Below are positions 28,881 through 59,810 of a stretch of 64,000 bases of DNA, in pieces. The notes beneath the pieces were generated by a model. The model did not search any database and was not told where the DNA came from. It saw nothing but the letters and a program-made list of their open reading frames with translations. Positions within the stretch are counted from its first letter, which is position 1, and every line of letters begins with the position of its first letter. The translations under genes and the position numbers were made by a program. The DNA is taken from assembly GCF_001677475.2 (NCBI RefSeq), contig NZ_CP015229.1, one strand, 5' to 3'. The DNA is from Escherichia coli. Its GTDB lineage: Bacteria; Pseudomonadota; Gammaproteobacteria; Enterobacterales; Enterobacteriaceae.

Positions 28881-30200
28881 ATGATGTCAGGAGAACACAC
28901 GTTAAAAGCGGTACGAGGCAGTTTTATTGATGTCACCCGTACGGTCGATAACCCGGAAGAGATTGCCTCTGTGCTGCGGTTTATTAAGGATGGTTTATTA
29001 CTCATTAAACAGGGAAAAGTGGAATGGTTTGGCGAATGGGAAAACGGAAAGCATCAAATTCCTGACACCATTCGCGTGCGCGACTATCGCGGCAAACTTA
29101 TAGTACCGGGCTTTGTCGATACACATATCCATTATCCGCAAAGTGAAATGGTGGGGGCCTATGGTGAACAATTGCTGGAGTGGTTGAATAAACACACCTT
29201 CCCTACTGAACGTCGTTATGAGGATTTAGAGTACGCCCGCGAAATGTCGGCATTCTTCATCAAGCAGCTTTTACGTAACGGAACCACCACGGCGCTGGTG
29301 TTTGGCACTGTTCATCCGCAATCCGTTGATGCGCTGTTTGAAGTCGCCAGTCATATCAATATGCGTATGATTGCCGGTAAGGTGATGATGGACCGCAACG
29401 CACCGGATTATCTGCTCGACACTGCCGAAAGCAGCTATCACCAAAGCAAAGAGCTGATCGAACGCTGGCACAAAAATGGTCGTCTGTTGTATGCGATTAC
29501 GCCACGCTTCGCCCCTACCTCATCTCCTGAACAGATGGCGATGGCGCAACGCCTGAAAGAAGAATATCCGGATACGTGGGTACATACCCATCTCTGTGAA
29601 AACAAAGATGAAATTGCCTGGGTGAAATCGCTTTATCCTGACCATGATGGTTATCTTGATGTTTACCATCAGTACGGCCTGACCGGTAAAAATTGTGTCT
29701 TTGCTCACTGCGTCCATCTCGAAGAAAAAGAGTGGGATCGTCTCAGCGAAACCAAATCCAGCATTGCTTTCTGTCCGACCTCCAACCTTTACCTCGGCAG
29801 CGGCTTATTCAACTTGAAAAAAGCATGGCAGAAGAAAGTCAAAGTGGGCATGGGAACGGATATCGGTGCCGGAACAACTTTTAACATGCTGCAAACGCTG
29901 AACGAAGCCTACAAGGTATTGCAATTACAAGGCTATCGCCTCTCGGCATATGAAGCGTTTTACCTGGCCACGCTCGGCGGAGCGAAATCTTTGGGCCTTG
30001 ACGATTTGATTGGCAACTTTTTACCTGGCAAAGAGGCTGATTTCGTGGTGATGGAACCCACCGCCACTCCGCTACAGCAGCTGCGCTATGACAACTCTGT
30101 TTCTTTAGTCGACAAATTGTTCGTGATGATGACGTTGGGCGATGACCGTTCGATCTACCGCACCTACGTTGATGGTCGTCTGGTGTACGAACGCAACTAA
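28881..30200 (+). CDS. guaD: guanine deaminase
   Basis: Translation from MMSGEHTLKAVRGSF; amidohydrolase HxH motif (DTHIHYPQ); ribosome-binding site AAAGGAG upstream; the supplied ORF has a 40-codon N-terminal extension that I reject. Confidence 0.9.
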   Translation: MMSGEHTLKAVRGSFIDVTRTVDNPEEIASVLRFIKDGLLLIKQGKVEWFGEWENGKHQIPDTIRVRDYRGKLIVPGFVDTHIHYPQSEMVGAYGEQLLEWLNKHTFPTERRYEDLEYAREMSAFFIKQLLRNGTTTALVFGTVHPQSVDALFEVASHINMRMIAGKVMMDRNAPDYLLDTAESSYHQSKELIERWHKNGRLLYAITPRFAPTSSPEQMAMAQRLKEEYPDTWVHTHLCENKDEIAWVKSLYPDHDGYLDVYHQYGLTGKNCVFAHCVHLEEKEWDRLSETKSSIAFCPTSNLYLGSGLFNLKKAWQKKVKVGMGTDIGAGTTFNMLQTLNEAYKVLQLQGYRLSAYEAFYLATLGGAKSLGLDDLIGNFLPGKEADFVVMEPTATPLQQLRYDNSVSLVDKLFVMMTLGDDRSIYRTYVDGRLVYERN

Positions 30201-30235
30201 TAATAAAACTTTAACATCCTCGTGAGGACATCATT

Positions 30236-31603
30236 ATGTCTGGAGACATCCTACAAACACCGGACGCACCAAAGCCACAGGGCGCGCTGGATAATTATTT
30301 TAAAATTACCGCTCGTGGCAGTACCGTTCGTCAGGAAGTACTGGCTGGCTTAACGACCTTTCTGGCCATGGTTTATTCCGTTATCGTCGTTCCGGGAATG
30401 CTGGGCAAAGCAGGTTTTCCTCCCGCAGCTGTGTTTGTTGCCACCTGTCTGGTCGCGGGCTTCGGCTCGTTGCTGATGGGATTATGGGCCAATTTGCCAA
30501 TGGCGATTGGTTGCGCGATTTCCTTGACGGCGTTTACCGCATTCAGTCTGGTTCTCGGGCAACAAATTAGCGTTCCTGTCGCACTGGGCGCGGTCTTTCT
30601 GATGGGCGTCATCTTCACCGCCATTTCCGTAACCGGTGTGCGTACCTGGATCTTACGTAATTTACCGATGGGGATAGCTCACGGTACAGGTATCGGTATC
30701 GGCCTGTTTCTGCTGCTGATTGCTGCTAACGGTGTGGGAATGGTTATCAAAAACCCGATTGAAGGCTTGCCAGTGGCGCTCGGTGCGTTTACCTCCTTCC
30801 CAGTGATGATGAGCTTGCTGGGGCTGGCGGTCATCTTCGGTCTGGAAAAGTGCCGCGTACCCGGCGGGATCTTGTTGGTGATTATTGCCATCTCGATCAT
30901 CGGCTTAATCTTTGATCCAGCGGTGAAATACCACGGTCTGGTGGCGATGCCAAGCCTGACTGGCGAAGATGGTAAATCTCTGATTTTCAGCCTCGATATT
31001 ATGGGCGCACTCCAGCCAACTGTACTTCCGAGTGTACTGGCATTGGTGATGACCGCAGTGTTCGACGCCACTGGTACCATCCGTGCCGTCGCCGGTCAGG
31101 CGAATTTGTTGGATAAAGACAACCAGATCATCAACGGCGGCAAAGCCCTGACCAGTGACTCAGTAAGTTCAATATTCTCCGGCCTGGTGGGCGCAGCGCC
31201 CGCAGCGGTTTATATCGAATCAGCGGCAGGAACCGCCGCCGGGGGTAAAACAGGGTTAACCGCAACCGTAGTGGGGGTGTTATTCCTGCTGATTCTGTTC
31301 TTATCACCGCTGTCATTTTTGATCCCTGGTTACGCCACTGCACCCGCTCTGATGTACGTAGGTTTGCTGATGTTAAGTAACGTCTCGAAGCTGGATTTCA
31401 ATGATTTTATTGACGCTATGGCTGGCCTGGTGTGTGCCGTGTTCATCGTTCTGACTTGTAATATCGTTACCGGTATTATGCTGGGCTTTGTGACACTGGT
31501 CGTAGGCCGCGTCTTTGCACGCGAATGGCAAAAGCTGAATATTGGTACGGTGATCATTACTGCCGCACTGGTCGCATTTTACGCGGGTGGTTGGGCAATC
31601 TAA
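30236..31603 (+). CDS. ghxQ: guanine/hypoxanthine permease (NCS2 family)
   Basis: 455 aa multi-pass membrane protein. Confidence 0.88.
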
Positions 31604-31608
31604 TAGAT

Positions 31609-31640
31609 TCTCCGCGCCTTTCAGCGCGGAGATTTCTTTC
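31609..31640. terminator. bidirectional terminator TCTCCGCGC-ctttca-GCGCGGAGA with T-run, between ghxQ and ygfS
   Basis: 9-bp perfect stem read directly. Confidence 0.65.
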
Positions 31641-32130
31641 ACAGAGGATTCTCACCGCTGGCAACAATACGCTGCTGGCGGACTCGCCTGAGTTCTCTTT
31701 CAGTAAGCAACTGCAGCGCCTGTGTTGGGCAAGATTCAACGCAGGCTGGCCCCTCTTCCCGCTGTTCACAGAGATCGCATTTCACGATTTGTTGCCGGGT
31801 ATCCCCCGGCAACGACTGAATGGTGATCATTCCAAACGGGCACGCACTGACGCAACTCTGACAGCCAATACAACGGGCAGAATTGGTCTGCACCACCTGC
31901 TCGCCCATCGTCAGCGCCCCCACGGGGCAAGCGCCAACACAAGGGGCGTTTTCACACTGATGGCACATCACCGGCGCACTGATGCTGTCCAGTCGCTGTA
32001 CCTTCAGCCGGGGTAAAAAGACATCGGCATTCAACTCCTGTTCTGAAGGGTGAGCGACCACACAGGCTACTTCACAAGTACGGCAGCCAATACAGTCAGC
32101 CGGATTAACGATAACTAACGATTTCATCAC
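31639..32130 (-). CDS. ygfS: 4Fe-4S ferredoxin-type protein
   Basis: 163 aa with multiple CxxCxxCxxxCP motifs. Confidence 0.88.
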
Positions 32131-34046
32131 GATGCCTTCGTATCAAACAGAGTTAACATATCGCGCGCCGCCTGCCTTCCTGCGGCCATTGCAGTGACAA
32201 CCAGATCCGCGCCATGAACTGCATCACCACCAGCAAAGACTTTTTTCAGATGCGTCTGGGTAGGTAAATACCCGACGTCACCGGTTTGAATCAGGCCCCA
32301 TTTATCGAGTTTAATTCCGCTGCCCTGCAACCACGGCATGGCATGCGCCTGGAAACCAAAGGCCATAATGAGAACATCGGCGGGCAATTCAAACTCTGAA
32401 CCCGCTACCGGACGAGGACGACGGCGACCATCCGGCCCCGGCTCACCCATGGCGGTACGAATCAGGCCCACCGCAGTTAAACGCCCATCTTCGTCACAAG
32501 CGATATATTGCGGCTGAACATTGAACTGAAACTCGACACCTTCCTCGCGCGCATTGACCACCTCTTTGCGCGAGCCCGGCATACTGACTTCATCACGACG
32601 ATACGCGCAGGTCACGCTGGCGGCATTGAGGCGGATGGAAGTCCGCAAACAATCCATGGTCGTATCGCCACCGCCCAATACCACGACTCGCTTACCTTCC
32701 ACATCCGTCAGCGGATACTCTTCAGACTCCGGCAACCCCATGAGCTGGCGGGTATGGGCAGTCAGGAATGGTAGAGCCTGAATGACACCGGGCGCATCTT
32801 CATGCGGCAGATCTGCTCGCATCATCCCGTAAGTCCCCACGCCGATGAAAACTGCATCATATTCAGAAGTTAAATCGCTAAAGGCAATATCGCGGCCAAT
32901 TTCACAGTTAAGATGAAAGTCGATTCCCATTGCGGTGAATATCTCTCGCCGCTGGCTTAATACCGTTTTATCGAGTTTGAAAGGAGGTATGCCAAAAGTC
33001 AGCATACCGCCAATTTCTGGATGGCGATCAAAGACATCAACCTGAACTCCTGCGCGCGCCAAAATATCAGCACACCCTAACCCTGCAGGCCCTGCGCCAA
33101 TCACCGCCACTTTTTCGATACGGGGAACAACTTTGCTGACATCGGGACGCCAGCCCATCGCCAGCGCGGTATCGGTAATGTAGCGTTCCAGATTCCCGAT
33201 AGAGACTGCGCCAGAGTGATCTTTCAAAGTACATGCGCCTTCACAAAGACGGTCCTGTGGACATACCCTGCCGCAGATTTCTGGCAAGGAACTGGTCTGG
33301 TGGCAAAGTTCTGCCGCTTCAATAATCTTTCCTTCCTGCACCAGACGGATGTAATCCGGAATAGCGTTATGCAGCGGGCAATGCCAGTTGCAGTTAGCTT
33401 TTTCGGCGCAATAAACACAGCGGTCACTCTCATAAGTCGCTTGTTGTGGATCCAGCCCGTAATAGATTTCGCCAAAGTGGGTTTTCCGTTCACTCGCTGA
33501 AATTTTATCTGCGCCTTTACGCGAGTTAACGGGGAGCAACGCTGCACTGCGAGATGGCTGAGCGTCTGATGACGCTTTTCCTGCTGCCGTTTTGCGCTGG
33601 CGGACCACCTTTATCTGTTGCAACCCTTTATCGTCCATCAGCCGTAACGCCTGTGTTGGGCAGACTTCAATACAGGCTTGCGTGCCGGAACTACGCTGGT
33701 TACAAAGGTCGCATTTCTGCGCAATCGTATCGACCATCTCAACGACGCCAAAGGGGCAAGCGATTGCGCATCTTTTACAACCAATACATTTTTGCTCGTC
33801 CAGTTGTACGCTATCGGGCTGGAAAGTCAGAGCATTAACCGGACAAGCCGTAACGCAAGGGGCATTGTTGCAGTGATGGCAGGCCACCGGATTCGCAGCC
33901 TGGCCTTTCCCTACAACGTGGATACGCGGTCGAAAGTCACTGTGACTCAGCGGCCAGTTTTCTTGATTATGTGCCATCGCACAGGCAATTTCACAAGCAT
34001 GACAGCCTATACATTCCGCAGCTTCAGCAGCGATAAACTTATTCAT
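32127..34046 (-). CDS. ygfT: fused 4Fe-4S / FAD-NAD(P) pyridine nucleotide-disulfide oxidoreductase
   Basis: Translation from [23 protein letters not shown]; Rossmann motif [12 protein letters not shown]; supplied ORF extends 5 codons upstream; stop overlaps the ygfS start. Confidence 0.88.
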
Positions 34047-34397
34047 TTGCATCCCTTTCATTTAATGAGTTATGTCTTCTCAAATTTCGCGATGCAATAA
34101 ATGGGCATATATTAGGTAGCATGGCCGATTTAATTATAATTTTGCGACTGAGTTCAAATTATTGCCCCTCAATCTGTGCCGCTTTCATTATTTCAACATT
34201 GCCGACCAAAAGAGAGCTAACCAGATAAAAACGATTAAATACGAGAGTGCGACATGCCAGAATGATTAATGAAATATCAATATGAGAAAATTACAGATAA
34301 TTCCATTGTCAGGTTCTCTTCTCATTTTCGTGGTTTAACCACGATTATGTGATTGCCTCCGCAATTCCTGTCTCTAACTCCCCTTCCTCGCAAAAAC

Positions 34398-34413
34398 TGG
34401 CACTCCACGAGCA
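34398..34413 (+). promoter_or_regulatory. candidate sigma54 promoter upstream of uacT: TGGCACtccacgaGCA
   Basis: TGGCAC at -24 and GC at -12 with canonical spacing, about 69 nt upstream of uacT. Confidence 0.35.
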
Positions 34414-34481
34414 TGTGTTTAGACAGTTTCATTAACGTAAACGGTTGCTTTTTACTCTGGCGAGCGAAAGGAGAAACACTG

Positions 34482-35930
34482 ATGAGCGCCATAGATTCCC
34501 AACTTCCCTCATCTTCAGGGCAAGATCGCCCAACTGATGAGGTTGACCGCATATTATCACCAGGAAAGCTGATCATACTCGGTCTGCAACACGTCCTTGT
34601 CATGTACGCAGGTGCAGTCGCTGTTCCTCTTATGATTGGTGACCGACTGGGCCTCTCAAAAGAAGCTATTGCGATGCTCATTAGCTCGGATCTCTTTTGC
34701 TGCGGGATCGTCACATTATTGCAATGTATCGGTATCGGCCGCTTTATGGGGATCCGCCTGCCGGTGATTATGTCGGTGACCTTCGCCGCTGTAACACCAA
34801 TGATAGCCATTGGGATGAACCCGGATATCGGCCTGCTGGGGATATTCGGTGCCACTATCGCCGCGGGTTTTATCACCACATTATTAGCGCCACTTATCGG
34901 TCGCTTGATGCCTTTATTCCCGCCACTGGTTACCGGTGTGGTTATTACTTCTATCGGACTTAGCATCATTCAGGTGGGTATTGACTGGGCCGCAGGAGGT
35001 AAAGGGAATCCGCAATATGGTAATCCTGTTTATTTAGGTATCTCCTTTGCTGTCTTAATTTTTATCTTGCTCATTACTCGCTATGCGAAAGGATTTATGT
35101 CCAACGTCGCCGTATTACTGGGGATTGTATTTGGCTTTTTACTTTCGTGGATGATGAATGAAGTCAATTTATCCGGGCTACATGATGCTTCATGGTTTGC
35201 GATTGTCACGCCGATGTCATTTGGTATGCCGATTTTCGATCCCGTTTCCATTCTGACCATGACTGCCGTGTTAATCATCGTGTTTATCGAGTCGATGGGG
35301 ATGTTCCTGGCACTGGGTGAAATAGTCGGTCGTAAACTCTCTTCACACGATATTATTCGCGGGTTGCGTGTCGATGGCGTAGGGACAATGATAGGCGGAA
35401 CGTTTAACAGCTTCCCCCACACGTCATTTTCTCAAAACGTTGGCCTGGTTAGCGTGACGCGCGTTCATAGCCGCTGGGTGTGTATTTCTTCGGGAATTAT
35501 ATTAATCCTGTTTGGCATGGTGCCAAAAATGGCGGTGCTGGTCGCCTCCATTCCGCAATTTGTGCTGGGCGGTGCTGGGCTGGTGATGTTCGGCATGGTA
35601 CTGGCGACAGGGATTCGAATTCTGTCGCGCTGTAACTACACCACCAACCGTTACAACCTCTATATTGTGGCGATCAGTCTCGGCGTTGGCATGACTCCGA
35701 CGCTCTCTCACGATTTCTTTTCTAAGTTACCGGCCGTACTGCAACCGTTGCTGCATAGCGGCATTATGCTCGCAACCCTTAGCGCCGTTGTGCTGAACGT
35801 CTTCTTTAATGGCTATCAGCATCATGCTGATCTGGTGAAGGAATCCGTCTCTGATAAAGATTTAAAAGTCAGGACAGTACGTATGTGGCTTCTGATGCGC
35901 AAGCTGAAGAAAAATGAGCATGGAGAATAA
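34482..35930 (+). CDS. uacT: uric acid permease (NCS2/NAT family)
   Basis: Translation from MSAIDSQLPSSSGQDRPTDE; supplied ORF has a 43-codon extension; multi-pass membrane protein. Confidence 0.88.
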   Translation: MSAIDSQLPSSSGQDRPTDEVDRILSPGKLIILGLQHVLVMYAGAVAVPLMIGDRLGLSKEAIAMLISSDLFCCGIVTLLQCIGIGRFMGIRLPVIMSVTFAAVTPMIAIGMNPDIGLLGIFGATIAAGFITTLLAPLIGRLMPLFPPLVTGVVITSIGLSIIQVGIDWAAGGKGNPQYGNPVYLGISFAVLIFILLITRYAKGFMSNVAVLLGIVFGFLLSWMMNEVNLSGLHDASWFAIVTPMSFGMPIFDPVSILTMTAVLIIVFIESMGMFLALGEIVGRKLSSHDIIRGLRVDGVGTMIGGTFNSFPHTSFSQNVGLVSVTRVHSRWVCISSGIILILFGMVPKMAVLVASIPQFVLGGAGLVMFGMVLATGIRILSRCNYTTNRYNLYIVAISLGVGMTPTLSHDFFSKLPAVLQPLLHSGIMLATLSAVVLNVFFNGYQHHADLVKESVSDKDLKVRTVRMWLLMRKLKKNEHGE

Positions 35931-36178
35931 TATGAATCTTTTAATGCGCGCTATATTCAGTCTGTTGTTGCTTTTTACTCTCTCTATTCCTGTCATTTCT
36001 GACTGTGTTGCAATGGCCATTGAAAGTCGCTTCAAATATATGATGCTGCTTTTTTAAATGGTTTTACCTGTCGACATCCGCTCAAAACGGGCGGTTGTCG
36101 ATAAACGCTCACTTGGTTAATCATTTCACTCTTCAATTATCTATAATGATGAGTGATCAGAATTACATGTGAGAAATT

Positions 36179-36727
36179 ATGCAAACGGAACACGTCATTT
36201 TATTGAATGCACAGGGAGTTCCCACGGGTACGCTGGAAAAGTATGCCGCACACACGGCAGACACTCTCTTACATCTCGCGTTCTCCAGTTGGCTGTTTAA
36301 TGCCAAAGGACAATTATTAGTTACCCGCCGCGCTCTGAGCAAAAAAGCATGGCCTGGCGTGTGGACTAACTCGGTTTGTGGGCACCCACAACTGGGAGAA
36401 AGCAACGAAGACGCGGTGATCCGCCGTTGCCGTTATGAGCTTGGCGTGGAAATTACGCCTCCTGAATCTATCTATCCTGACTTTCGCTATCGCGCCACCG
36501 ATCCGAATGGCATTGTGGAAAATGAAGTGTGTCCGGTATTTGCCGCACGCACGACCAGTGCATTACAGATCAACGATGATGAAGTGATGGATTATCAATG
36601 GTGTGATTTAGCAGATGTATTACACGGTATTGATGCCACACCGTGGGCGTTCAGTCCGTGGATGGTGATGCAGGCAGCCAATAGTGAAGCAAGAAAATTG
36701 TTGTCTGCTTTCGCGCAGCACAATTAA
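36179..36727 (+). CDS. idi: isopentenyl-diphosphate delta-isomerase (Nudix fold)
   Basis: 182 aa, [22 protein letters not shown]. Confidence 0.92.
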
Positions 36728-36769
36728 AAAACCCCGACATTTGCCGGGGTTGTGAGCATAACGTAATGC

Positions 36770-38287
36770 TTATTTTACCGGACGCATCGCCGGGAACAGA
36801 ATAACGTCGCGGATGGTATGGCTGTTGGTGAACAGCATTACCATACGGTCGATACCAATTCCCAGACCTGCTGTCGGCGGTAAGCCGTGTTCCAGTGCGG
36901 TGACATAATCTTCGTCGTAGAACATCGCTTCGTCGTCACCTGCATCTTTCGCGGCAACCTGATCCAGGAAGCGCTGCGCCTGATCTTCCGCGTCATTCAG
37001 CTCGCTAAAGCCGTTACCGATTTCACGACCACCGATAAAGAACTCAAAGCGGTCTGTGATTTCCGGGTTAACGTCGTTACGACGCGCCAGCGGAGAAACT
37101 TCTGCCGGATATTCAGTAATGAAGGTCGGCTGGATCAGATGTGCTTCTGCCACTTCTTCGAAGATCTCGGTAACGATACGGCCCAGACCCCAGCTCTTCT
37201 CAACGTGGATGCCGATAGATTCAGCAATCGCTTTCGCAGAGTCGAAGTTGTCCAGATCTGCCATGTCGGTTTCCGGGCGATATTTCTTGATCGCTTCACG
37301 CATGGTCAGTTTTTCGAACGGTTTACCGAAGTCCAGCGTTACGTCGCCGTAGGTCACTTCCGTCTTACCGAGAATATCCTGTGCCAGAGTACGGAACAGC
37401 GATTCGGTCAGCTCGATCAGATCTTTGTAATCTGCGTAAGCCATATAGAGTTCCATCATGGTGAACTCTGGGTTATGACGTACGGAAATACCTTCGTTAC
37501 GGAAGTTACGGTTGATTTCGAATACACGCTCGAAGCCACCGACCACCAGACGCTTGAGGTACAGTTCCGGCGCGATACGCAGGTACATGTCGAGATCCAG
37601 CGCATTATGGTGGGTGATGAACGGACGCGCAGCCGCACCGCCTGGGATCACCTGCATCATCGGCGTTTCAACTTCCATAAAGCCGCGATTCACCATGAAC
37701 TGGCGAATGCCAGAGAGGATCTGCGAGCGCACTTTAAAGGTGTTGCGGGATTCATCGTTAGAGATGAGATCCAGATAACGCTGACGATAGCGCGCTTCCT
37801 GGTCCTGCAAGCCGTGGAATTTGTCCGGCAGCGGACGCAGTGCTTTGGTCAGCAGACGCAGCTCGGTGCAGTGGATAGACAGTTCGCCAGTTTTGGTTTT
37901 GAACAGTTTACCTTTCGCGCCGAGGATGTCGCCGAGGTCCCATTTTTTGAACTGCTCGTTGTAAACGCCTTCCGGCAGATCGTCACGGGCAACGTACAGC
38001 TGAATGCGGCCCCCCACGTCCTGCAGGGTAACGAAAGACGCTTTACCCATAATACGACGGGTCATCATGCGGCCGGCAACGGCGACTTCGATGTTCAGCG
38101 CTTCCAGTTCTTCGTTCTCTTTACCGTCGAATTCTGCGTGCAATTGGTCAGAGGTATGATCGCGACGGAAATCGTTCGGGAAGGCAATCCCCTGCTCGCG
38201 CAGGTTCGCCAGCTTCTCACGACGCGTTTTCAGTTCATTGTTAAGATCGACTACCGCGTCAGCGCCCTGTGCGTGTTGTTCAGACAT
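36770..38287 (-). CDS. lysS: lysine--tRNA ligase (constitutive)
   Basis: 505 aa class II aminoacyl-tRNA synthetase; N-terminus [26 protein letters not shown]. Confidence 0.93.
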
Positions 38288-38296
38288 GTTGGTTCC

Positions 38297-39395
38297 TCAT
38301 AACCCTGCTTTCAAACTTGCTTCGATAAATTGATCCAGGCTGCCGTCCAGCACGGCCTGCGTGTTACGGGTTTCTACCCCGGTACGCAGATCTTTAATGC
38401 GGGAGTCATCAAGGACATAAGAACGAATCTGGCTGCCCCAGCCGATGTCGGATTTGTTATCTTCCATCGCCTGCTTCTCGGCATTTTTCTTCTGCATCTC
38501 CAGTTCATAAAGCTTCGCTTTCATCTGCTTCATGGCCTGGTCTTTGTTCTTGTGCTGGGAACGGTCGTTCTGGCACTGGGTCACGATCCCAGTTGGGATG
38601 TGAGTAATACGCACCGCAGATTCGGTACGGTTAACGTGCTGACCGCCCGCGCCGGACGCGCGATAAACGTCAATGCGCAGATCCGCCGGGTTGATTTCGA
38701 TATCAATATCATCATCAACTTCCGGGTAAACAAACGCAGAGCTGAACGACGTGTGGCGACGACCGCCGGAGTCAAACGGGCTCTTACGCACCAGGCGGTG
38801 AACGCCAGTTTCTGTACGCAGCCAGCCGTAAGCGTAATCGCCGGAGATTTTGATCGTCACGGATTTAATACCCGCCACTTCACCTTCCGACTCTTCGATG
38901 ATTTCAGTTTTGAAACCACGCGATTCTGCCCAGCGCAGATACATACGCTCAAGCATGCTCGCCCAGTCCTGTGCTTCCGTACCGCCAGACCCCGCCTGAA
39001 TATCGAGGTAGCAGTCGGCGCTGTCATATTCGCCAGAGAACATACGGCGGAACTCAAGCTGCGCCAGTTTTTCTTCCAGGGCGTCGAGTTCAGCAACGGC
39101 TTCGTTAAAGGTTTCTTCGTCGTCAGCTTCTACAGCCAGTTCCAGCAGACCAGAAACATCTTCCAGCCCCTGTTTCATTTGGTCGAGGGTGTCGACAACG
39201 GCTTCGAGGGAGGAACGCTCTTTACCCAGCGCCTGTGCGCGTTCGGGTTCGTTCCAGACATCCGGCTGTTCCAGCTCGGCGTTTACTTCTTCCAGACGCT
39301 CTTTCTTGGCGTCGTAGTCAAAGATACCCCCTAAGAACGTCGGAGCGTTCCGTGAGGTCCTGAATGCGATTATTTACCGGATTAATTTCAAACAT
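38297..39395 (-). CDS. prfB: peptide chain release factor 2, expressed through a programmed +1 frameshift
   Basis: Minus-strand ATG at 39395 opens a 25-codon frame ending CTT TGA C (39317-39323), preceded by the internal Shine-Dalgarno AGGGGG; the +1 frame then continues to the stop at 38297 and includes the GGQ motif (SGAGGQHVN). Confidence 0.93.
39317..39331 (-). other. prfB: prfB programmed +1 frameshift site: AGGGGGTAT CTT TGA C
   Basis: Read directly on the minus strand. Confidence 0.9.
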
Positions 39396-39485
39396 GGTCT
39401 GATTTCTTTTATTGAGCTAGTCAAAATGCGGTGATAAGAGCGGGATTGTACCCAATCCACGCTCTTTTTTATAGAGAAGATGACG

Positions 39486-41219
39486 CTAAATTGGCCAGAT
39501 ATTGTCGATGATAATTTGCAGGCTGCGGTTGCCGCGAAACTCGTTAATATCGAGCTTGTAAGCCAGTTGTACTTCGCGCACGCCGTTATCCGGCCAGAGG
39601 GCGGTATCGACATTAAAAGCAATACCATCCAGCAGCGGACCGCCGCCGACCGGTTCGACCATCACCTTCAAATGACGTTCGCCCACCAGCCGCTGTTGCA
39701 GCAGACGGAAATGACCGTCAAACAGCGGCTCCGGGAACATCTGCCCCCACGGGCCAGCATCGCGCAGCAGCTGAGCCACTTCCATGGTCATTTCGGCCGG
39801 GCTTAACGGACCGTCTGACACTACTTCGCCTTGCAATAGCGAAGGGTCCAGCCACTCAGAAACCAGTTCGCCAAACCGTTGTTGAAAGAGTTCGAATTTA
39901 TCCTCTTCCAGCGACAAACCCGCCGCCATCGCATGACCGCCAAACTTGAGCATCATGCCGGGGTAGAGTGTGTCTAATCGCTCCAGCGCATCACGCATAT
40001 GCAGCCCCTGAATCGAGCGACCGGAACCTTTCAGCGTACCGTCACCTGCTGGCGCAAAGGCGATAACCGGACGGTGAAAACGCTCTTTGATGCGCGAAGC
40101 CAGAATACCGACAACGCCCTGATGCCATTCGGGGTGATACATTGCCAGCCCGCCGGGTAGCGTGTCACGGCTGCGCTCCAGTTTCTCGCACAGGGTCAGG
40201 GCTTCAATCTGCATTCCTTGTTCGATCTCTTTTCGCGTCTGGTTTAGCGCATCGAGTTCATTTGCCAGCACGCGCGCTTCGCCGATGTTGTCGCAGAGCA
40301 ACAGCGCCACACCGACGGACATATCATCCAGTCGCCCGGCAGCATTGAGACGTGGCCCCAGCGCAAAACCTAAATCGCTGGCGGCGAGTTTTTGTGCATC
40401 ACGGTTTGCCACTTCAAGCAGAGCTTTAATCCCTGGACGGCACTTTCCGGCACGGATGCGACTCATCCCCTGCCAGGTCAGAATGCGATTATTAGCGTCC
40501 AGCGGCACGACGTCCGCTACTGTCCCCAGCGCGACCAGATCCAGCAGTTCTGCCAGGTTAGGAATTGCGATGCCATGCTCATCAAACCAGCCCTGATCAC
40601 GCAAAAAGGTGCGCAGCGCCAGCATCAGATAAAACGCCACACCCACGCCTGCCAGTGATTTCGACGGGAAATTACAGTCGCGCAAGTTAGGGTTAATGAT
40701 CGCTTCCGCTGCGGGTAATGTGTCGCCCGGCAAATGGTGATCGGTAACAATAACCGGAATGCCCAACGAGCGAGCGTGTTCAACCCCCGCATGGGAGGAA
40801 ATTCCGTTATCCACCGTGACAATTAACTGCGCGCCACGGGCATGGGCCTGATCGACCACTTCCGGGCTTAAGCCGTAACCGTCTTCGAAACGGTTTGGAA
40901 CCAGGTAGTCGATATTGCTGCAACCAAGCGAGCGCATCGCCAGCACGCTTAGAGCCGTACTGGTGGCACCGTCTGCGTCGAAATCACCGACCACAATAAT
41001 CCGCGTTCCTTCGCGAAAAGCGTTGTAAAGGATCTCAACGGCCTTTTCGACGCCGCTCAGTTGCTGCCAGGGCAGCATACCTTTAACACTGCGTTCCAGT
41101 TCTTGCGCACTGCGTACTCCCCGGCTGGCGTATAAACGGCGCAGCAAGGGAGGCAATTCAGCGGGCAAGTCTGCCGTTTCATCGACTTCACGGCGACGAA
41201 GTTGTATCTGTTGTTTCAC
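39486..41219 (-). CDS. recJ: single-stranded-DNA-specific exonuclease RecJ
   Basis: 577 aa; DHH phosphoesterase motifs. Confidence 0.92.
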   Translation of the reverse strand: MKQQIQLRRREVDETADLPAELPPLLRRLYASRGVRSAQELERSVKGMLPWQQLSGVEKAVEILYNAFREGTRIIVVGDFDADGATSTALSVLAMRSLGCSNIDYLVPNRFEDGYGLSPEVVDQAHARGAQLIVTVDNGISSHAGVEHARSLGIPVIVTDHHLPGDTLPAAEAIINPNLRDCNFPSKSLAGVGVAFYLMLALRTFLRDQGWFDEHGIAIPNLAELLDLVALGTVADVVPLDANNRILTWQGMSRIRAGKCRPGIKALLEVANRDAQKLAASDLGFALGPRLNAAGRLDDMSVGVALLLCDNIGEARVLANELDALNQTRKEIEQGMQIEALTLCEKLERSRDTLPGGLAMYHPEWHQGVVGILASRIKERFHRPVIAFAPAGDGTLKGSGRSIQGLHMRDALERLDTLYPGMMLKFGGHAMAAGLSLEEDKFELFQQRFGELVSEWLDPSLLQGEVVSDGPLSPAEMTMEVAQLLRDAGPWGQMFPEPLFDGHFRLLQQRLVGERHLKVMVEPVGGGPLLDGIAFNVDTALWPDNGVREVQLAYKLDINEFRGNRSLQIIIDNIWPI

Positions 41220-41224
41220 GCGAA

Positions 41225-41935
41225 TTATTTACCGCTGGTCATTTTTTGGTGTTCGTCGAGGAATTCTTTCATGTCTTTCGGTGGCTGGTAACCCGGAACA
41301 AGTGTGCCATTGCTCAGCACAATTGCCGGTGTGCCGCTAACGCCAAGCTGGACGCCAAGTGCGTAATGATCGGCAATATCGATATCGCAACTTGCCGGAG
41401 TGGCAGCTTTACCTGCCATCACATCATCAAACGCTTTGTTTTTATCTTTCGCACACCAGATAGCTTTCATTTCTTTCTCTGCATCGCTGTCCAGCCCCTG
41501 GCGCGGGAAAGCAAGATAACGCACGGTGATCCCCAGCGCGTTGTAGTCTGCCATTTGCTCATGCAGTTTGTGGCAGTAACCACAGGTAATATCAGTAAAC
41601 ACGGTGATGACGTGTTTTTCCTGCGGCGCTTTATAAACGATCATCTCTTTTTCAAGCGCATTCAACTGCTTTAACAGCATCTTATTGGTGACATTGACCG
41701 GAGCCGTGCCACTAACGTCATACATTGGCCCCTGAATGATATGTTTACCATCATCGGTGATGTACAACACACCGCTGTTAGTCAGAACTGTCTTCATGCC
41801 AGCTACAGGCGCGGGCTGAATATCGCTGCTTTTGATGCCCATTTTGGCTAACGTTTGTTGAATTGCCGCGTCATCAGCCTGAGCAAAGCCTGAAAACGCC
41901 GCTAACAAAGTAAACAACATAAAACCTTTCTTCAT
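41225..41935 (-). CDS. dsbC: thiol:disulfide interchange protein DsbC
   Basis: 236 aa; signal peptide and thioredoxin-fold CGYC active site. Confidence 0.92.
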   Translation of the reverse strand: MKKGFMLFTLLAAFSGFAQADDAAIQQTLAKMGIKSSDIQPAPVAGMKTVLTNSGVLYITDDGKHIIQGPMYDVSGTAPVNVTNKMLLKQLNALEKEMIVYKAPQEKHVITVFTDITCGYCHKLHEQMADYNALGITVRYLAFPRQGLDSDAEKEMKAIWCAKDKNKAFDDVMAGKAATPASCDIDIADHYALGVQLGVSGTPAIVLSNGTLVPGYQPPKDMKEFLDEHQKMTSGK

Positions 41936-41959
41936 AAATCTTCCCGTTCTTTTCAGACA

Positions 41960-42856
41960 TCACGCCCGCGGGTGATGCTGTTGATGAAGTTGCCGCAGAC
42001 GCTCGGTAGCGACATGCGTATAAATTTGCGTGGTGGAGAGATCGCTGTGGCCCAGTAGCATCTGCACCACGCGTAAATCCGCACCATGATTTAATAAATG
42101 AGTGGCAAAAGCGTGACGCAACACATGCGGTGACAGCTTTTCGCTGTCGATACCCGCCAGCACGGCATAATGTTTAATGCGGTGCCAGAAGGTTTGTCGC
42201 GTCATCTGCTGCGCACGCTGGCTGGGGAACAACACATCAATAGAGACACCGTTCAACAACCACGGTCGCCCATGCTCGAGATACGTTTCCAGCCAGTAAA
42301 CCGCCTCTTCACCTAACGGTACCAGGCGCTCTTTGTTGCCTTTACCAATGACCCGCACTACGCCCTGACGCAGGCTGATATCACTCATTGTCAGTCCGAC
42401 CAGTTCAGAGACACGCAGCCCGGTAGCATACAACACTTCAAGCATGGCTTTATCGCGTAGCTCCAGTGGCTGATCAATTAATGGTGCCTGTAATAAACGT
42501 TCAACCTGCGCTTCGCTTAAATCTTTTGGCAAACGCTGGGGCAATTTCGGTGAAGCGAGATGCGCACTGGGATCGTCTTCACGAAACTTTTCGCGATAAA
42601 GATACTGGAACAATCGGCGCACTGCACTCAGCAAACGCGCTGAGCTGGTGGCTTTATACCCGCCCTCCAGCCGTTCTGCCAGTAATGCCTGCAAATCGTC
42701 ACTTTGCGCAGTCGCCAGCGTCAACCCGCGGTGATGCAACCACTCCACCATCATTGACAGATCGCGACGGTATGCGTTCAACGTATTTTCAGCCAGATTT
42801 TTTTCCAGCCACAGAGCATCAAGAAACTGCTCGATGCGTGCCAGATCCTGTTTCAC
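41960..42856 (-). CDS. xerD: site-specific tyrosine recombinase XerD (chromosome dimer resolution)
   Basis: 298 aa; catalytic segment HVLRHAFATHLL...LGHSDLSTTQIYTHV. Confidence 0.92.
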   Translation of the reverse strand: MKQDLARIEQFLDALWLEKNLAENTLNAYRRDLSMMVEWLHHRGLTLATAQSDDLQALLAERLEGGYKATSSARLLSAVRRLFQYLYREKFREDDPSAHLASPKLPQRLPKDLSEAQVERLLQAPLIDQPLELRDKAMLEVLYATGLRVSELVGLTMSDISLRQGVVRVIGKGNKERLVPLGEEAVYWLETYLEHGRPWLLNGVSIDVLFPSQRAQQMTRQTFWHRIKHYAVLAGIDSEKLSPHVLRHAFATHLLNHGADLRVVQMLLGHSDLSTTQIYTHVATERLRQLHQQHHPRA

Positions 42857-42967
42857 TTGCGCCCCTTATGGTCACTCATTTGATCCATTATGCCTTATTG
42901 TGCCGTGACTAAAGCGATTCTGATACACTAGCCGCAAAAGCCACAGCAGAATCGAGAAGCTTACGTT

Positions 42968-43489
42968 ATGAATATGGGTCTTTTTTACGGTTCCAGCACC
43001 TGTTACACCGAAATGGCGGCAGAAAAAATCCGCGATATTATCGGCCCAGAACTGGTGACCTTACATAACCTCAAGGACGACTCCCCGAAATTAATGGAGC
43101 AGTACGATGTGCTCATTCTGGGTATCCCGACCTGGGATTTTGGCGAAATCCAGGAAGACTGGGAAGCCATCTGGGATCAGCTCGACGACCTGAACCTCGA
43201 AGGTAAAATTGTTGCGCTGTATGGGCTTGGCGATCAACTGGGATACGGCGAGTGGTTCCTCGATGCGCTCGGTATGCTGCATGACAAGCTCTCGACCAAA
43301 GGCGTGAAGTTCGTCGGCTACTGGCCAACGGAAGGATATGAGTTTACCAGCCCGAAACCGGTGATTGCTGACGGGCAACTGTTCGTGGGCCTGGCGCTGG
43401 ACGAAACTAATCAGTATGACCTTAGCGACGAGCGTATTCAGAACTGGTGCGAGCAAATCCTCAACGAAATGGCAGAGCATTACGCCTGA
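42968..43489 (+). CDS. fldB: flavodoxin 2
   Basis: 173 aa, [21 protein letters not shown]. Confidence 0.9.
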
Positions 43490-43528
43490 TGTCACTGACG
43501 GCTTAGCGCATATGCTTTGCCGTCATCT

Positions 43529-44195
<667 letters not shown>

Positions 44196-44425
44196 TCACG
44201 AAAATCCAGTACCCGGCTATTGTAACGTGTTTTTCGACTTCTTTTACGGGAATATCAGTAAACACAATCGCGATCGCGAAATTAATTCACAACAATTCAA
44301 GAGCTTCATTTTTTTGGAAGTCGCCTCGCAGAAGGCACAGATCGCGTAGTGAAAGCACTTGCATTGCCTCATAGCTCTTTTACCATTAGTTATTAATACG
44401 CCGTTAAGCAACTCAGGACTCTATT

Positions 44426-45406
44426 ATGGCTTTTACACCTTTTCCTCCCCGTCAGCCTACGGCTTCTGCCCGTTTACCGCTGACGCTGATGACGCTTGAT
44501 GACTGGGCGCTTGCCACCATTACTGGCGCGGACAGCGAAAAATATATGCAGGGTCAGGTGACAGCAGATGTCAGCCAGATGACAGAAAATCAGCATCTGC
44601 TCGCCGCCCATTGCGACGCCAAAGGTAAAATGTGGAGCAATTTACGTCTGTTCCGCGACGGCGATGGCTTTGCATGGATTGAACGGCGCAGCGTGCGTGA
44701 ACCGCAGCTGACTGAACTGAAAAAATATGCGGTGTTCTCTAAAGTGACCATCGCGCCAGACGACGAGCGTGTGCTGCTTGGTGTTGCCGGTTTTCAGGCG
44801 CGCGCCGCGCTGGCCAATCTCTTTAGTGAACTGCCTTCGAAAGAAAAACAGGTAGTTAAAGAAGGCGCGACCACTTTGCTATGGTTTGAACACCCGGCAG
44901 AACGTTTCCTGATCGTAACCGATGAAGCTACTGCCAATATGCTGACCGATAAACTGCGCGGTGAAGCGGAACTGAACAATAGCCAACAGTGGCTGGCATT
45001 AAACATTGAAGCGGGTTTCCCGGTGATTGATGCCGCGAACAGCGGGCAGTTTATCCCACAGGCGACCAATCTCCAGGCGCTGGGCGGTATCAGCTTTAAG
45101 AAAGGCTGTTATACCGGACAAGAGATGGTGGCGCGAGCAAAATTCCGTGGTGCCAATAAACGTGCGCTCTGGTTGCTGGCAGGTAGTGCCAGCCGACTGC
45201 CGGAAGCTGGTGAAGATTTAGAGCTGAAAATGGGCGAGAACTGGCGTCGCACCGGTACGGTGCTGGCTGCGGTAAAACTGGAAGATGGTCAGGTCGTGGT
45301 ACAGGTCGTCATGAATAACGATATGGAACCGGACAGCATCTTCCGCGTGCGTGACGATGCGAATACATTGCATATCGAGCCGCTGCCGTATTCGCTCGAA
45401 GAGTAA
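44426..45406 (+). CDS. ygfZ: folate-binding protein YgfZ (GcvT-like fold; Fe-S cluster repair / tRNA modification)
   Basis: 326 aa; conserved KGCYxGQE motif. Confidence 0.9.
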
Positions 45407-45413
45407 ATCTCTG

Positions 45414-45448
45414 TGTCGCATCAGGCATTTATCGCCTGATGCGACACG
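45414..45448. terminator. bidirectional 14-bp-stem hairpin GTGTCGCATCAGGC-atttatc-GCCTGATGCGACAC between ygfZ and yqfA
   Basis: Perfect inverted repeat read directly. Confidence 0.6.
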
Positions 45449-45482
45449 GGTGTGTCTTTTCAGGCCTACAAAGGCACACCCA

Positions 45483-46145
<663 letters not shown>

Positions 46146-46305
46146 TTACTCCGGAGAAACGTACACGCACATGTATACCTCTCCAGCGTAACTGAGAATA
46201 GTTCCAGTGAACACCTGTTAGCTAAAATAAATTCTGATTTGAGACTAATCTCCGAAAAATCAGGAAATTAAATGCGAAATTTCAACTAACAGGCGTGAGT
46301 TCAAT

Positions 46306-46617
46306 TTAAAGGCATTTAAATTCAATCACATAAAACTGTGTCTGGCCGGGATAGATATCGGCAATGACCTTTTTCAGATCAGTCAGGGGCATATTTTCCT
46401 GCTCTGCATGTTTTTCCGTCAGTGTATCCAGCGTTACGGTTGAGGTTGCGGTGACTTCAATCGTGCAAAAATAACCGTCATCTTCAAAACGTCCGACACG
46501 AAGCACATCACCCGTTTTGAAGTGCGATTCAGACTCGTCGCGGATGGTGATGGTTTTACGCCCAGCCAGAATGTCATCCTGGAAACGTTGAAAAAAAGTG
46601 ATGTCGTTTGGCTGCAT
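46306..46617 (-). CDS. yqfB: ASCH-domain protein YqfB
   Basis: 103 aa, [27 protein letters not shown]. Confidence 0.85.
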
Positions 46618-46634
46618 GGTACTATTTCCTGTAA

Positions 46635-48095
<1,461 letters not shown>

Positions 48096-48107
48096 GTAGA
48101 TGAAGTA

Positions 48108-48138
48108 CCGGATGCAATGCTTGTTGCGTTGCATCCGG
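48108..48138. terminator. hairpin CCGGATGCAATGC-ttgtt-GCGTTGCATCCGG between convergent bglA and ygfF
   Basis: Near-perfect 13-bp inverted repeat. Confidence 0.5.
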
Positions 48139-48156
48139 TCAGACAACTTTCCTGCT

Positions 48157-48900
48157 TTATTTCCCGCCCGCCAAATCGATAAAACTTCCCGTGACATAAG
48201 AGGCTTTATCACTAAGCAGCCAGACAATGGCCTGCGCGACCTCTTCCGCCTGTCCGCCGCGCTGCATGGGGATGTTCGACTTAACGCGATCGACGCGTCC
48301 GGGTTCACCACCGCTGGCATGCATTTCGGTATAAATAAACCCAGGCCGCACGCCGTTAACGCGAATGCCCTGCGCGGCGACTTCCAGCGATAATCCGGTG
48401 GTTAACGTATCAATCGCCCCTTTCGATGCCGCATAATCAACGTATTCTCCGGGTGATCCCAGCCTGGCTGCTACCGAAGAAACATTGACGATAGCGCCGC
48501 CACTGCCGCCGTTTTTCAGCGCCATGCGTTTTACCGCCTCGCGGCAGCAGAGAAAATAACCCGTCACGTTGGTGGAAAGTACTTGGTTGATTCGCTCTGC
48601 CGTGAGATTTTCCACTGTGCATTGGGTAAACAATATTCCTGCGTTATTGACCAGCGCGGCTAACGGTTCATCACGCTGATCGATTGCTGTAAACATTGCG
48701 ATAACCTGATTTTCGTCGCTGATATCCGCCTGGAGCACAAATGCCTTGCCACCGGCTTGCGTTATTAAGTTCACCACTTCCTGCGCCGCGTGGAGGTTTT
48801 GCTGATAATTAACCGCCACCGTATACCCTTCTTTTACCAGCAGCAGCGCAGTTGCCCGCCCAATGCCGCGACTACCACCGGTCACAAGTGCTATAGCCAT
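48157..48900 (-). CDS. ygfF: short-chain dehydrogenase/reductase (SDR) family oxidoreductase
   Basis: 247 aa; TGGSRGIG cofactor motif and YAASK catalytic motif. Confidence 0.88.
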   Translation of the reverse strand: MAIALVTGGSRGIGRATALLLVKEGYTVAVNYQQNLHAAQEVVNLITQAGGKAFVLQADISDENQVIAMFTAIDQRDEPLAALVNNAGILFTQCTVENLTAERINQVLSTNVTGYFLCCREAVKRMALKNGGSGGAIVNVSSVAARLGSPGEYVDYAASKGAIDTLTTGLSLEVAAQGIRVNGVRPGFIYTEMHASGGEPGRVDRVKSNIPMQRGGQAEEVAQAIVWLLSDKASYVTGSFIDLAGGK

Positions 48901-48917
48901 TTGTTTTCCCCAAAAAT

Positions 48918-49106
48918 AAAGGCGCCGAAGCGCCTTTCAAATTGATGACAAAGTGCGTTTTTATGCCGGATGCGGCGTGAACGCCTTATCCAGCCTACAA
49001 GATCGTGCAAATTCAATACATTGCAGAGACCATGTAGGCCTGATAAACGAAGTGCATCAGGCAATGTTGAGTTTGTCATCAGCCTCAAAGGCGCCGAAGC
49101 GCCTTT
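48918..49106. repeat. REP/BIME-like cluster: two REP-like palindromic units flanked by two identical 20-bp hairpins AAAGGCGCCGAAGCGCCTTT
   Basis: Identical hairpin copies at 48918-48937 and 49087-49106; REP-like units around 48965-48999 (GCCGGATGCGGCGTGAACGCCTTATCC) and 49034-49062 (GTAGGCCTGATAAACGAAGTGCATCAGGC). Confidence 0.7.
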
Positions 49107-49128
49107 AGAAGATAGTCGAATCAGTAAA

Positions 49129-52002
49129 TTACTGGTATTCGCTAATCGGTACGCAGGAGCAGAACAGGTTACGGTCGCCGTAAACATCATCCAGACGTTT
49201 CACTGTTGGCCAGTATTTGTCTGCCACGCCTGCCGGGAATACTGCAACGTCACGGCTGTACGGATGCGCCCACTCGGCGACCAGTTCGCTCTGAATGTGC
49301 GGCGCGTTCACCAGCGGGTTATCTTCCAGCGGCCAGACACCAGCTTTCACCTGTTCAATTTCTGCGCGGATAGCCAGCATAGCGTCGATAAAGCGATCCA
49401 GTTCCACTTTGCTTTCAGATTCAGTCGGTTCAACCATCAGCGTACCCGCCACCGGGAACGACATCGTCGGCGCGTGGAAACCGTAGTCGATCAGGCGCTT
49501 GGCAATATCCAGCTCGCTGATGCCGGTTTCTTCTTTCAGCGGGCGAATATCGAGAATACATTCGTGCGCCACGCGACCGTCGCGACCGGTATACAGCACC
49601 GGGAAGGCATCCTGCAGGCGGCTGGCAATATAGTTGGCGTTAAGAATTGCCACCTGGCTTGCTTTTTTCAGCCCTTCTGCGCCCATCATGCGGATGTACA
49701 TCCAGCTGATTGGCAGAATGGATGCGCTACCGAACGGTGCCGCAGAAACCGCGCCCTGACGGGTTAACATGCCTTCGATTTGCACCACGCTATGACCCGG
49801 TACAAACGGTGCCAGATGCGCTTTCACACCGATCGGTCCCATACCCGGACCACCACCGCCGTGCGGAATGCAGAAAGTTTTATGCAGGTTAAGGTGCGAA
49901 ACATCCGCGCCAATAAAGCCCGGCGAAGTGATACCAACCTGAGCGTTCATGTTCGCGCCATCAAGGTAAACCTGACCACCGAACTGATGCACGACTTCAC
50001 ACACCTCACGGATCGTTTCTTCATACACGCCGTGGGTGGAAGGATAGGTCACCATGATACAGGAGAGGTTATCGCCCGCCTGTTCCGCTTTCGCGCGCAG
50101 ATCAGTCAGATCGATGTTGCCGTTTTTATCACACGCCACAACCACCACCTGCATTCCTGCCATATGTGCAGAAGCGGGGTTAGTTCCGTGCGCAGAAGCC
50201 GGGATCAGGCAGATATCGCGATGCCCTTCGTTGCGGCTTTCATGATAATGACGAATCGCCAGCAGGCCCGCATATTCGCCCTGTGCGCCAGAGTTCGGCT
50301 GCATACAAACGGCGTCGTAACCGGTCAGTTTCACCAGCCAGTCAGCCAACTGCGCAATCATCTGCTGATAACCTTCGGCCTGTTCCGGCGGGCAGAACGG
50401 GTGCAGTTCGGCAAATTCCGGCCAGGTGATTGGGATCATCTCGGCGGCGGCGTTCAGTTTCATGGTGCAGGAACCCAGCGGGATCATCGCCTGATTCAGC
50501 GCCAGATCTTTACGCTCCAGCGAGTGCATATAGCGCATCATTTCGGTTTCGCTGTGGTAGCGATTAAACACCGGATGAGTGAGGATTTCGTCGTCGCGCA
50601 GCATCGCAGGCTGAATAGAGCGGCTGTCGTGAGCCACGTCTTTGTCCAGCGTGTCGATCTCCAGCCCGTGGTTATCGCCCAGCAGCACGCTGAAAAGCTG
50701 CATCACGTTTTCACGCGTGGTGGTTTCATCAAGGGTGATCCCAACCGCGTTCAGGATATCGCTACGCAGGTTGATTTCAGCCGCTTCGGCACGCGTCAGT
50801 ACGCCCGCTTTGTCGGCCACTTCCACACACAAGGTGTCGAAATAGTGCGCATGACGCAGTTTCAGACCTTTTTGTTGCAGGCCCGCCGCCAGGATATCGG
50901 TCAGACGGTGGATGCGGTTAGCGATACGTTTCAGGCCCACCGGGCCGTGATAAACGGCATACAGGCTGGCGATGTTTGCCAGCAGTACCTGGGAAGTACA
51001 AATGTTGGAGTTCGCTTTCTCACGGCGAATATGTTGCTCGCGAGTCTGCATCGCCATGCGCAGCGCGGTATTGCCAGCTGCATCTTTCGATACACCGATA
51101 ATACGGCCCGGCATTGAGCGTTTGTATTCATCTTTCGCCGCAAAGAATGCCGCGTGTGGGCCTCCGTAGCCCATCGGCACGCCGAAACGTTGCGCCGAAC
51201 CAAAGACAATATCCGCGCCCTGTTTACCCGGCGCAGTTAACAGCACCAGCGCCATAATATCGGCGGCAACGCTGACCACGATTTTGCGTGATTTCAGTTC
51301 GCTGATAAGCGCAGTATAGTCGTGGATTTCACCGGTAGTGCCGACCTGCTGTAACAGCACGCCGAAGACGTCCTGATGATCGAGCACTTTTTGCGCGTCA
51401 TCGACAATCACTTCAAAACCAAAGGTTTCGGCACGAGTACGGACCACATCCAGCGTTTGCGGATGCACATCGGAAGCCACGAAGAAGCGGTTGGCATTTT
51501 TCAGTTTGCTGACGCGTTTCGCCATCGCCATTGCTTCGGCGGCAGCAGTGGCTTCGTCAAGAAGAGAAGCCGATGCCATATCCAGCCCGGTTAAATCCAG
51601 CGTTACCTGCTGGAAGTTGAGCAGTGCTTCAAGGCGGCCCTGGGAGACTTCAGGTTGATACGGAGTATACGCGGTATACCAGCCCGGATTTTCCAGCATG
51701 TTACGCAGGATAACCGGCGGTAACTGCACGGCGGTGTACCCCATGCCGATGTAAGACGTGAAGCGTTTATTGCGACTGGCAATAGCCTTGAGTTCTGCCA
51801 GTGCGGCGTATTCGGTCGCCGGTGCGCCAACCTGCGGCGGAGTCGCAAGCTGAATATCTTTCGGCACAATCTGGCCGGTCAGCGCGTTTAACGATTGTGC
51901 GCCAACGGCATTCAGCATTTCTTGCTGTTGCGCGGCGTCCGGTCCGATATGGCGTTCAATAAAAGCGCCGCTGTTTTCAAGCTGGCTTAACGTCTGTGTC
52001 AT
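49129..52002 (-). CDS. gcvP: glycine dehydrogenase (decarboxylating), glycine cleavage system P-protein
   Basis: Translation from [22 protein letters not shown]; supplied ORF has a 28-codon extension. Confidence 0.93.
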
Positions 52003-58943: not shown

Positions 58944-59128
58944 ATTTCTCTGAGATGTTCGCAAGCGGGCCAGTCCCCTGAGCCGATATTTCATACCACA
59001 AGAATGTGGCGCTCCGCGGTTGGTGAGCATGCTCGGTCCGTCCGAGAAGCCTTAAAACTGCGACGACACATTCACCTTGAACCAAGGGTTCAAGGGTTAC
59101 AGCCTGCGGCGGCATCTCGGAGATTCCC
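58944..59128 (+). ncRNA. ssrS: 6S RNA (SsrS), RNA polymerase-sigma70 regulatory RNA
   Basis: Sequence ATTTCTCTGAGATGTTCGCAAGCGGGCCAGTCCCCTGAGCCGATATTTCATACCACAAGAATGTGG...GGCATCTCGGAGATTCCC matches the 6S RNA sequence as I remember it; ends are approximate to within a few nt. Confidence 0.9.
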
Positions 59129-59750: not shown

Positions 59751-59810
59751 GGGCGACACACCTGCATCGCCCTGATTGACATCGTTGATTCTTTAACCTA
59801 ATTTAGTGAG

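Follow-up and report, generated by a model that had tools for sequence, protein, structure and literature searches.

The programmed +1 frameshift site of the RF2 gene prfB, and its neighbour lysS, in an Escherichia coli genome

The RF2 gene prfB, carried on the minus strand of a 64,000-nt stretch of Escherichia coli DNA (contig NZ_CP015229.1; the whole stretch is called the window here), is interrupted at codon 26 by what is almost certainly the canonical autoregulatory programmed +1 ribosomal frameshift site of this gene. Every published feature of the cassette is found: the gene encodes RF2, an early UGA (never UAG) lies at about codon 26, the slippery sequence is CUU U, a C follows the stop, AGGGGG lies 3 nt before CUU, and the +1 frame is open. 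The site is already known and annotated, and nothing in it departs from the canonical form. Known since 1985-86, it is the case on which both programmed +1 frameshifting and the translational autoregulation exerted by a termination factor were founded as concepts. The original reports of the E. coli prfB frameshift are said to be those of Craigen et al. in 1985 and of Craigen and Caskey in 1986, and the original experimental papers reportedly also include those of Weiss in 1987 and 1988. The site has since been surveyed in more than 12,000 genomes (PMC12421855) and is routinely annotated by NCBI's pipeline. It therefore serves as a positive control and not as a discovery: a recoding site, and an ORF call that cuts an essential gene by 72 residues, can both be recognised from raw sequence.

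The 0 frame of prfB (ORF1; 39395-39321, minus strand) opens with ATG at 39395-39393 and runs through 25 sense codons, the ATG and 24 others, to a TGA at 39320-39318. These codons specify RF2 residues 1-25 and agree fully with the solved E. coli RF2 chains. The local cassette reads CTT AGG GGG TAT CTT TGA C. Its internal Shine-Dalgarno (SD)-like element, AGGGGG (39332-39327), covers the codons Arg22-Gly23, sits 3 nt upstream of CTT and 6 nt upstream of the stop, and equals the consensus given in PMC12421855; together with the following U, it could pair with the 3' tail of 16S rRNA. The 3-nt spacer TAT (39326-39324) is the Tyr24 codon, which would occupy the E site at the moment of the shift. 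The slippery CTT T (39323-39320) consists of the Leu25 codon CTT (39323-39321) and the first base of the stop, a combination for which the mechanism has been described (PMC12421855, PMC10798248). The stop itself, the RF2-specific TGA at codon 26, is followed by C at 39317, which creates a weak termination context (PMC12421855). A preliminary description of this DNA had proposed a 25-codon frame from the ATG at 39395, ending in CTT TGA C and preceded by AGGGGG at the stimulatory spacing; the frame proves to be correct to the base, and the spacing is the 3 nt before CTT.

What do the two frames encode beyond the stop? The +1 frame (ORF2; 39319-38297, minus strand) is open for 340 sense codons, from GAC at 39319 (Asp26) to Leu365, and closes with TGA at 38299-38297, which agrees with the earlier statement that it runs to the prfB stop. 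The 0 frame continues into unrelated sequence and meets a second stop 32 codons on. Translation of both frames around the site had been put forward as a check, and it returned a 0 frame that stops at codon 26, with the SD-like sequence present, and a +1 frame that is RF2. This bears on the idea that the UGA is read through or recoded, by a near-cognate tRNA or as selenocysteine, with the 0 frame simply continuing. UGA-C is a leaky stop context (PMC12421855), which would favour such an event; however, RF2 is encoded by the +1 frame only, and a protein extended in the 0 frame would gain just 32 unrelated codons. Nor was a stimulatory RNA structure detected at or downstream of the shift site (folding z-scores of -0.46 and -1.13), and when 38000-39800 was compared with Rfam under a permissive E-value, the two matches obtained were at chance level (E = 1.5 and 7.8) and far under their gathering scores, so that no curated RNA family covers the site. 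Readthrough is excluded by the 0-frame sequence, and its probability is vanishingly small. The absence of structure fits a frameshift signal that is made of linear sequence.

Upstream of the site, the +1 frame is shut by TAA at 39376-39374, and it contains no ATG, GTG, or TTG between this TAA and 39178. Because the frame is closed upstream and has no start codon until 39178, a mechanical ORF list gives only 38297-39178, an ORF of 293 aa that begins at Met73, the first internal methionine of RF2. The suspicion that this ORF is N-terminally incomplete was justified: it lacks the first 72 residues. The presence of an ATG at 39178 in the +1 frame, as used in the ORF list, allows a reading in which no frameshift takes place and two separate products are made, namely a 25-residue peptide and a shorter RF2 initiated inside the +1 frame. 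Against this reading stand the missing start codons and the fact that, among the matches listed in a search of other species, homology to RF2 begins at residue 26 and not at residue 73. In addition, the 0-frame residues 1-25 are part of the RF2 chains in solved structures, and the prfB family model reaches back to residue 12. These observations exclude an independent start of a shorter RF2, which we regard as very improbable.

When the 25 and 340 codons are joined by a +1 shift, a 365-aa protein results. This joined product scores 525.9 bits on the NCBIfam model TIGR00020 prfB (cut-off 370), which covers it from residue 12, and stays under the cut-off on RF1 models; the Pfam domains PCRF and RF-1 are both found. 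Residues 1-365 align with residues 1-365 of the RF2 chains in solved E. coli structures; 1gqe and 1ml5 each differ from it at a single position, and LRGYL-DYDAKK at the junction is the same as in these chains. The SPF signature of RF2 stop-codon recognition lies at residues 205-207 and the catalytic GGQ at 250-252. In the two E. coli genomes inspected, RefSeq gives the prfB CDS as a two-piece join with the note "programmed frameshift". Thus, the designation of this locus as a classic autoregulatory recoding site is upheld by the joined RF2, by an RGYL-DYD junction like that of the solved chains, and by the RefSeq annotation. An RF2 that starts Met1-Phe-Glu and contains the junction peptide is reported in the classical literature. 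What sets this copy apart from the known E. coli prfB is allelic detail: codon 246 (38566-38564, minus strand) specifies Ala246 here and Thr246 in K-12. The weaker A246T is carried by K-12 strains, and the fully active Ala246 allele occurs outside K-12 (PMC7530605); the source of the present DNA is therefore not a K-12 derivative.

An essential gene with a stop at codon 26 looks disrupted if read naively. Could the break be a frameshift mutation or a sequencing error, so that prfB would be a pseudogene or the assembly wrong? Of 5,426 complete E. coli genomes, 5,425 contain a single copy of the 1.4-kb prfB locus, and 5,424 genomes have a match to the 60 nt that surround the site (4,410 of them at 99% or more). 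A break at this very nucleotide, flanked by this 16-nt cassette, recurs in 5,424-5,425 of the 5,426 genomes, and among the matches listed it is also present in the prfB of 110 unrelated species' genomes. Furthermore, no second RF2 gene has to be invoked, and RefSeq curates the site as programmed. The conservation of the exact break excludes a pseudogene or an error, and this reading is hardly credible. One variant genome that was inspected has a synonymous change of TAC to TAT at Tyr27 and another change at codon 29, both of which lie outside the cassette.

The cassette is also conserved beyond E. coli. When the site is aligned with those of E. albertii, Citrobacter, Photorhabdus, Rodentibacter, Shewanella, and Vibrio, AGGGGGTAYCTTTGAC does not vary, in contrast to the third codon positions next to it, and AGGGGG is invariant in the nine gammaproteobacterial sequences aligned. 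A pattern scan for TNAGGGGGNNNCTTTGAC in one genome per bacterial species returned at least 120 instances; since this sample was picked by the motif itself, it shows where the motif is located and not how frequent it is. Of the 120 instances listed, 110 have a +1 frame that can be aligned with E. coli RF2, and in 108 of these 110 the first aligned pair is residue 1 of the +1 product and RF2 residue 26. Among these matches, identity to RF2 is highest in E. albertii (99.7%); the lowest value is about 42% for a complete gene, in Porphyromonas, and 26.4% for a truncated one. A single instance among the 120 listed ends after three codons, yet has a Bacillus-type prfB context, and the other nine look like chance occurrences. 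The listed matches that align to RF2 come from Gamma- and Betaproteobacteria, Firmicutes, Bacteroidota, Deinococcota, Gemmatimonadota, Myxococcota, and Fusobacteriota, as judged from the titles of the sequence records. As to frequency, a published survey found the motif in 8,164 of 12,753 genomes (64%), the consensus being AGGGGG, 3 nt, CTTT, with strong conservation of the C that follows the stop (PMC12421855).

The spacer codon is the variable part of the motif. At the motif-bearing prfB loci among the matches listed, TAT is the commonest spacer (55 loci), followed by TCT (26) and TAC (11). The choice follows lineage in these matches: TAT or TAC is found in Gammaproteobacteria and Bacteroidota, TCT in Bacillus-type Firmicutes, CAT in Bartonella-/alphaproteobacterial and myxobacterial-type sequences, and TTT in a few cases. 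In the same matches, the residue before Arg-Gly switches between Leu (LRG) and Phe (FRG) from locus to locus.

Could such a cassette have arisen by chance? In the 64-kb window, a single copy of the 16-nt motif AGGGGGNNNCTTTGAC is found, compared with 0.06 occurrences expected (one mismatch allowed; a match was obtained in 6 of 100 shuffles). Taken alone, this single occurrence is only suggestive. Given its position in a release factor gene and its conservation across species, the cassette is judged to be far beyond chance.

A separate stretch of constant sequence is found at the very beginning of the gene. The first 17 nt of prfB (39395-39379, minus strand), ATGTTTGAAATNAATCC, are near-invariant from E. 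coli to Vibrio, Shewanella, and Rodentibacter, and this constancy extends to some of the third codon positions (several of them), in contrast to the 40 nt that follow, which are free to vary. A constraint on initiation or on the early nascent peptide may be responsible.

How would the site operate? Ribosomes that start at the ATG at 39395 would translate 25 codons and then pause. At that point, the P site would hold peptidyl-tRNA-Leu paired with CUU, and the A site would hold UGA-C, a poor termination context served by RF2 only. If RF2 is plentiful, termination would follow and a short, unstable peptide of 25 residues would be released; if RF2 is scarce, the pause would be longer. Pairing of AGGGGG(U), three nt upstream, with the anti-SD of 16S rRNA would promote the shift. 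The tRNA-Leu would re-pair from CUU to UUU (+1) and, with GAC read as Asp26, 340 more codons would be translated to give the 365-aa RF2. Because UGA is read by RF2 only, RF2 would in this way repress its own synthesis.

The competition at UGA-C between termination and SD-assisted slippage from CUU to UUU is the mechanism described in the literature (PMC12421855, PMC10798248), as is the layout of 25 + 340 residues (PMC10798248). By ribosome profiling, the efficiency at the endogenous locus was estimated at about 28% in K-12 and, with the RF2 allele of E. coli B, at about 21% (PMC5373646), and an efficiency of about 50% was obtained with a reporter in E. coli (PMC10798248). For the present locus, the shift, its efficiency, and the feedback are taken from the literature on the identical E. 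coli sequence, and our own analysis covers anatomy, the identity of the joined product, and positional conservation. A +1 shift whose efficiency falls as RF2 rises has been established experimentally for that identical sequence and would, by analogy, be expected here.

A loss of one base could also restore the frame before translation, if RNA polymerase slipped on a run of T. Such transcriptional slippage occurs on long homopolymer runs in bacteria. The run at this site is TTT only, however, far shorter than the known tracts, and a conserved SD-like element at fixed spacing and an RF2-specific stop make sense for a ribosomal event only. Moreover, the effect that the levels of RF2 and RF3 are published to have is a translational one (PMC5373646). 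Transcriptional slippage is implausible given the TTT run and the two elements that it leaves unexplained, and can be accorded next to no probability.

The ribosomal frameshift site described here agrees with that of E. coli prfB in the gene, the UGA at codon 26, the cassette, the 25 + 340 layout, the neighbourhood and, bar strain-level variation, the protein. The genes for RecJ and DsbC lie upstream of prfB and that for LysS lies downstream, which matches the E. coli order xerD-dsbC-recJ-prfB-lysS-idi. The prfB sites of Bacillota, Bacteroidota, Deinococcota, and other phyla share the core AGGGGG-3 nt-CTTTGAC, the codon position, and an onset at the equivalent of Asp26, but differ by lineage in the spacer (E-site) codon. 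In the prfB of Bacteroidia, the SD element contributes little, and the efficiency is about 7% compared with about 50% in E. coli (PMC10798248). Other +1 shifts, those of yeast Ty1/Ty3, antizyme, E. coli pheL, and the copA type, have in common with prfB a slow A-site codon and a re-pairing P-site tRNA. They differ in that they occur in other genes, without an RF2-specific stop as a sensor and without an SD:anti-SD interaction at a 3-nt spacing. These sites do not belong to the prfB family.

Is the expression of the next gene connected with the frameshift? The gene lysS, which encodes a lysine--tRNA ligase of 505 aa (38287-36770, minus strand), lies directly downstream of prfB; it was identified by the NF009101 model (1110 bits; cut-off 1026), by RefSeq annotation, and by synteny. 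It had been placed 9 bp downstream of prfB, and indeed its ATG at 38287 follows the 9-nt spacer GGAACCAAC (38296-38288) in a junction that was delimited at 38298-38288. The SD sequence of lysS, GAGGA (38298-38294), overlaps the prfB stop and ends 6 nt before the lysS ATG. A terminator-like site, a GC-rich hairpin with a T-run (36751-36730, minus strand), is found 19 nt after the lysS stop. It is the sole terminator-like site on the minus strand in a scan of 36500-39800, with none between prfB and lysS, and is likely to be the end of a prfB-lysS transcript.

The arrangement is conserved. Among the matches listed, lysS is directly downstream of prfB and on the same strand in 48 of 85 evaluable motif-bearing loci, i.e., those with enough downstream sequence. 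Most of the gap lengths at these loci are approximate extrapolations from tblastn; a gap of exactly 9 nt is seen in five other enterobacterial loci among the matches listed. The loci with adjacent genes in this set include one from Gemmatimonadota, two from Myxococcales, and many from Gammaproteobacteria. The 9-nt gap, the absence of a terminator in between, the hairpin after lysS, and the conserved synteny together make co-transcription of prfB and lysS a well-supported prediction. The RF2 operon was reportedly described by Kawakami et al. in 1988 as including lysS (herC). A literature search on prfB-lysS/herC found no paper that describes the transcription of the operon.

A promoter scan of 36500-39800 called one promoter-like site inside prfB (39027-38999), compared with 3.0 expected by chance, so that this site provides no evidence for an internal lysS promoter; a consensus promoter was not called in the recJ-prfB spacer by the same scan.

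The preliminary description went further and held that lysS expression is coupled to the prfB transcript. A shared transcript is well supported by the evidence given above, and a coupling of lysS to the frameshift beyond co-transcription is something that we can only infer. It could come about by Rho-dependent polarity or by a loss of translational coupling, either of which would tie lysS to the termination capacity of the cell. With abundant RF2, about 70-80% of ribosomes would terminate at codon 26, and the prfB mRNA just upstream of lysS would be left untranslated over about 1 kb. The tight 9-nt junction that is kept in enterics, the adjacency of the two genes across many Gammaproteobacteria and some other phyla, and the overlap of the lysS SD with the prfB stop are consistent with this proposal. 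However, co-location is its sole support, and the fact that lysS has its own SD makes independent initiation likely. Mention of lysS or of polarity was looked for in two recent prfB papers, and none was found. Such a link to the frameshift is therefore unlikely; if true, it would connect the synthesis of lysyl-tRNA synthetase, a housekeeping enzyme, with the termination capacity of the cell.

Upstream of prfB, the recJ-prfB spacer contains a strong 13-bp hairpin (39466-39436, minus strand) of the form AAGAGCGuGGAUUG-GGUA-CAAUCCCGCUCUU, with a folding energy of -20 kcal/mol and a z-score of -5.66. The distance from the recJ stop to the hairpin is 20 nt, and that from the hairpin to the prfB ATG is 41 nt. 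On the minus strand it is not followed by a U-run, and a terminator-like site was called there on the opposite strand. The hairpin is kept in E. albertii, where one G-C pair has become G.U, is degraded in Citrobacter, and is missing from Photorhabdus. Its loop and 3' arm include a conserved TACAAT, which may be the -10 element of prfB. The hairpin itself could be the 3' end of recJ or a 5' element of prfB.

The surrounding sequence suggests that the window comes from a somewhat divergent E. coli-like lineage to which none of the complete E. coli genomes is close. The region 30000-50000 is 97.6-97.9% identical to the best of the 5,426 complete E. coli genomes; one E. coli locus matches a 7.4-kb stretch at about 98.1% identity, and E. 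albertii matches about 11 kb at 91%. A search with the same region gave a median of 20 matching places per genome, which indicates that a short dispersed repeat is located somewhere in it.

Elsewhere in the window, Rfam matches at gathering level were obtained for 6S RNA (ssrS; 58944-59127, plus strand), SIB antitoxin RNA (59776-59926, plus strand), and the sRNA ES036 (CssrF; 48999-49041, plus strand), the last of these just above threshold (40.8 versus 37.6 bits). A tRNA-Gly(CCC) is present at 2280-2353 on the minus strand. Finally, long open frames run antisense to the two genes discussed here, one of 334 aa over prfB (38330-39334, plus strand) and one of 471 aa over lysS (36887-38302, plus strand). 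These are most likely shadow ORFs that arise from the codon bias of the sense genes, and not real genes.
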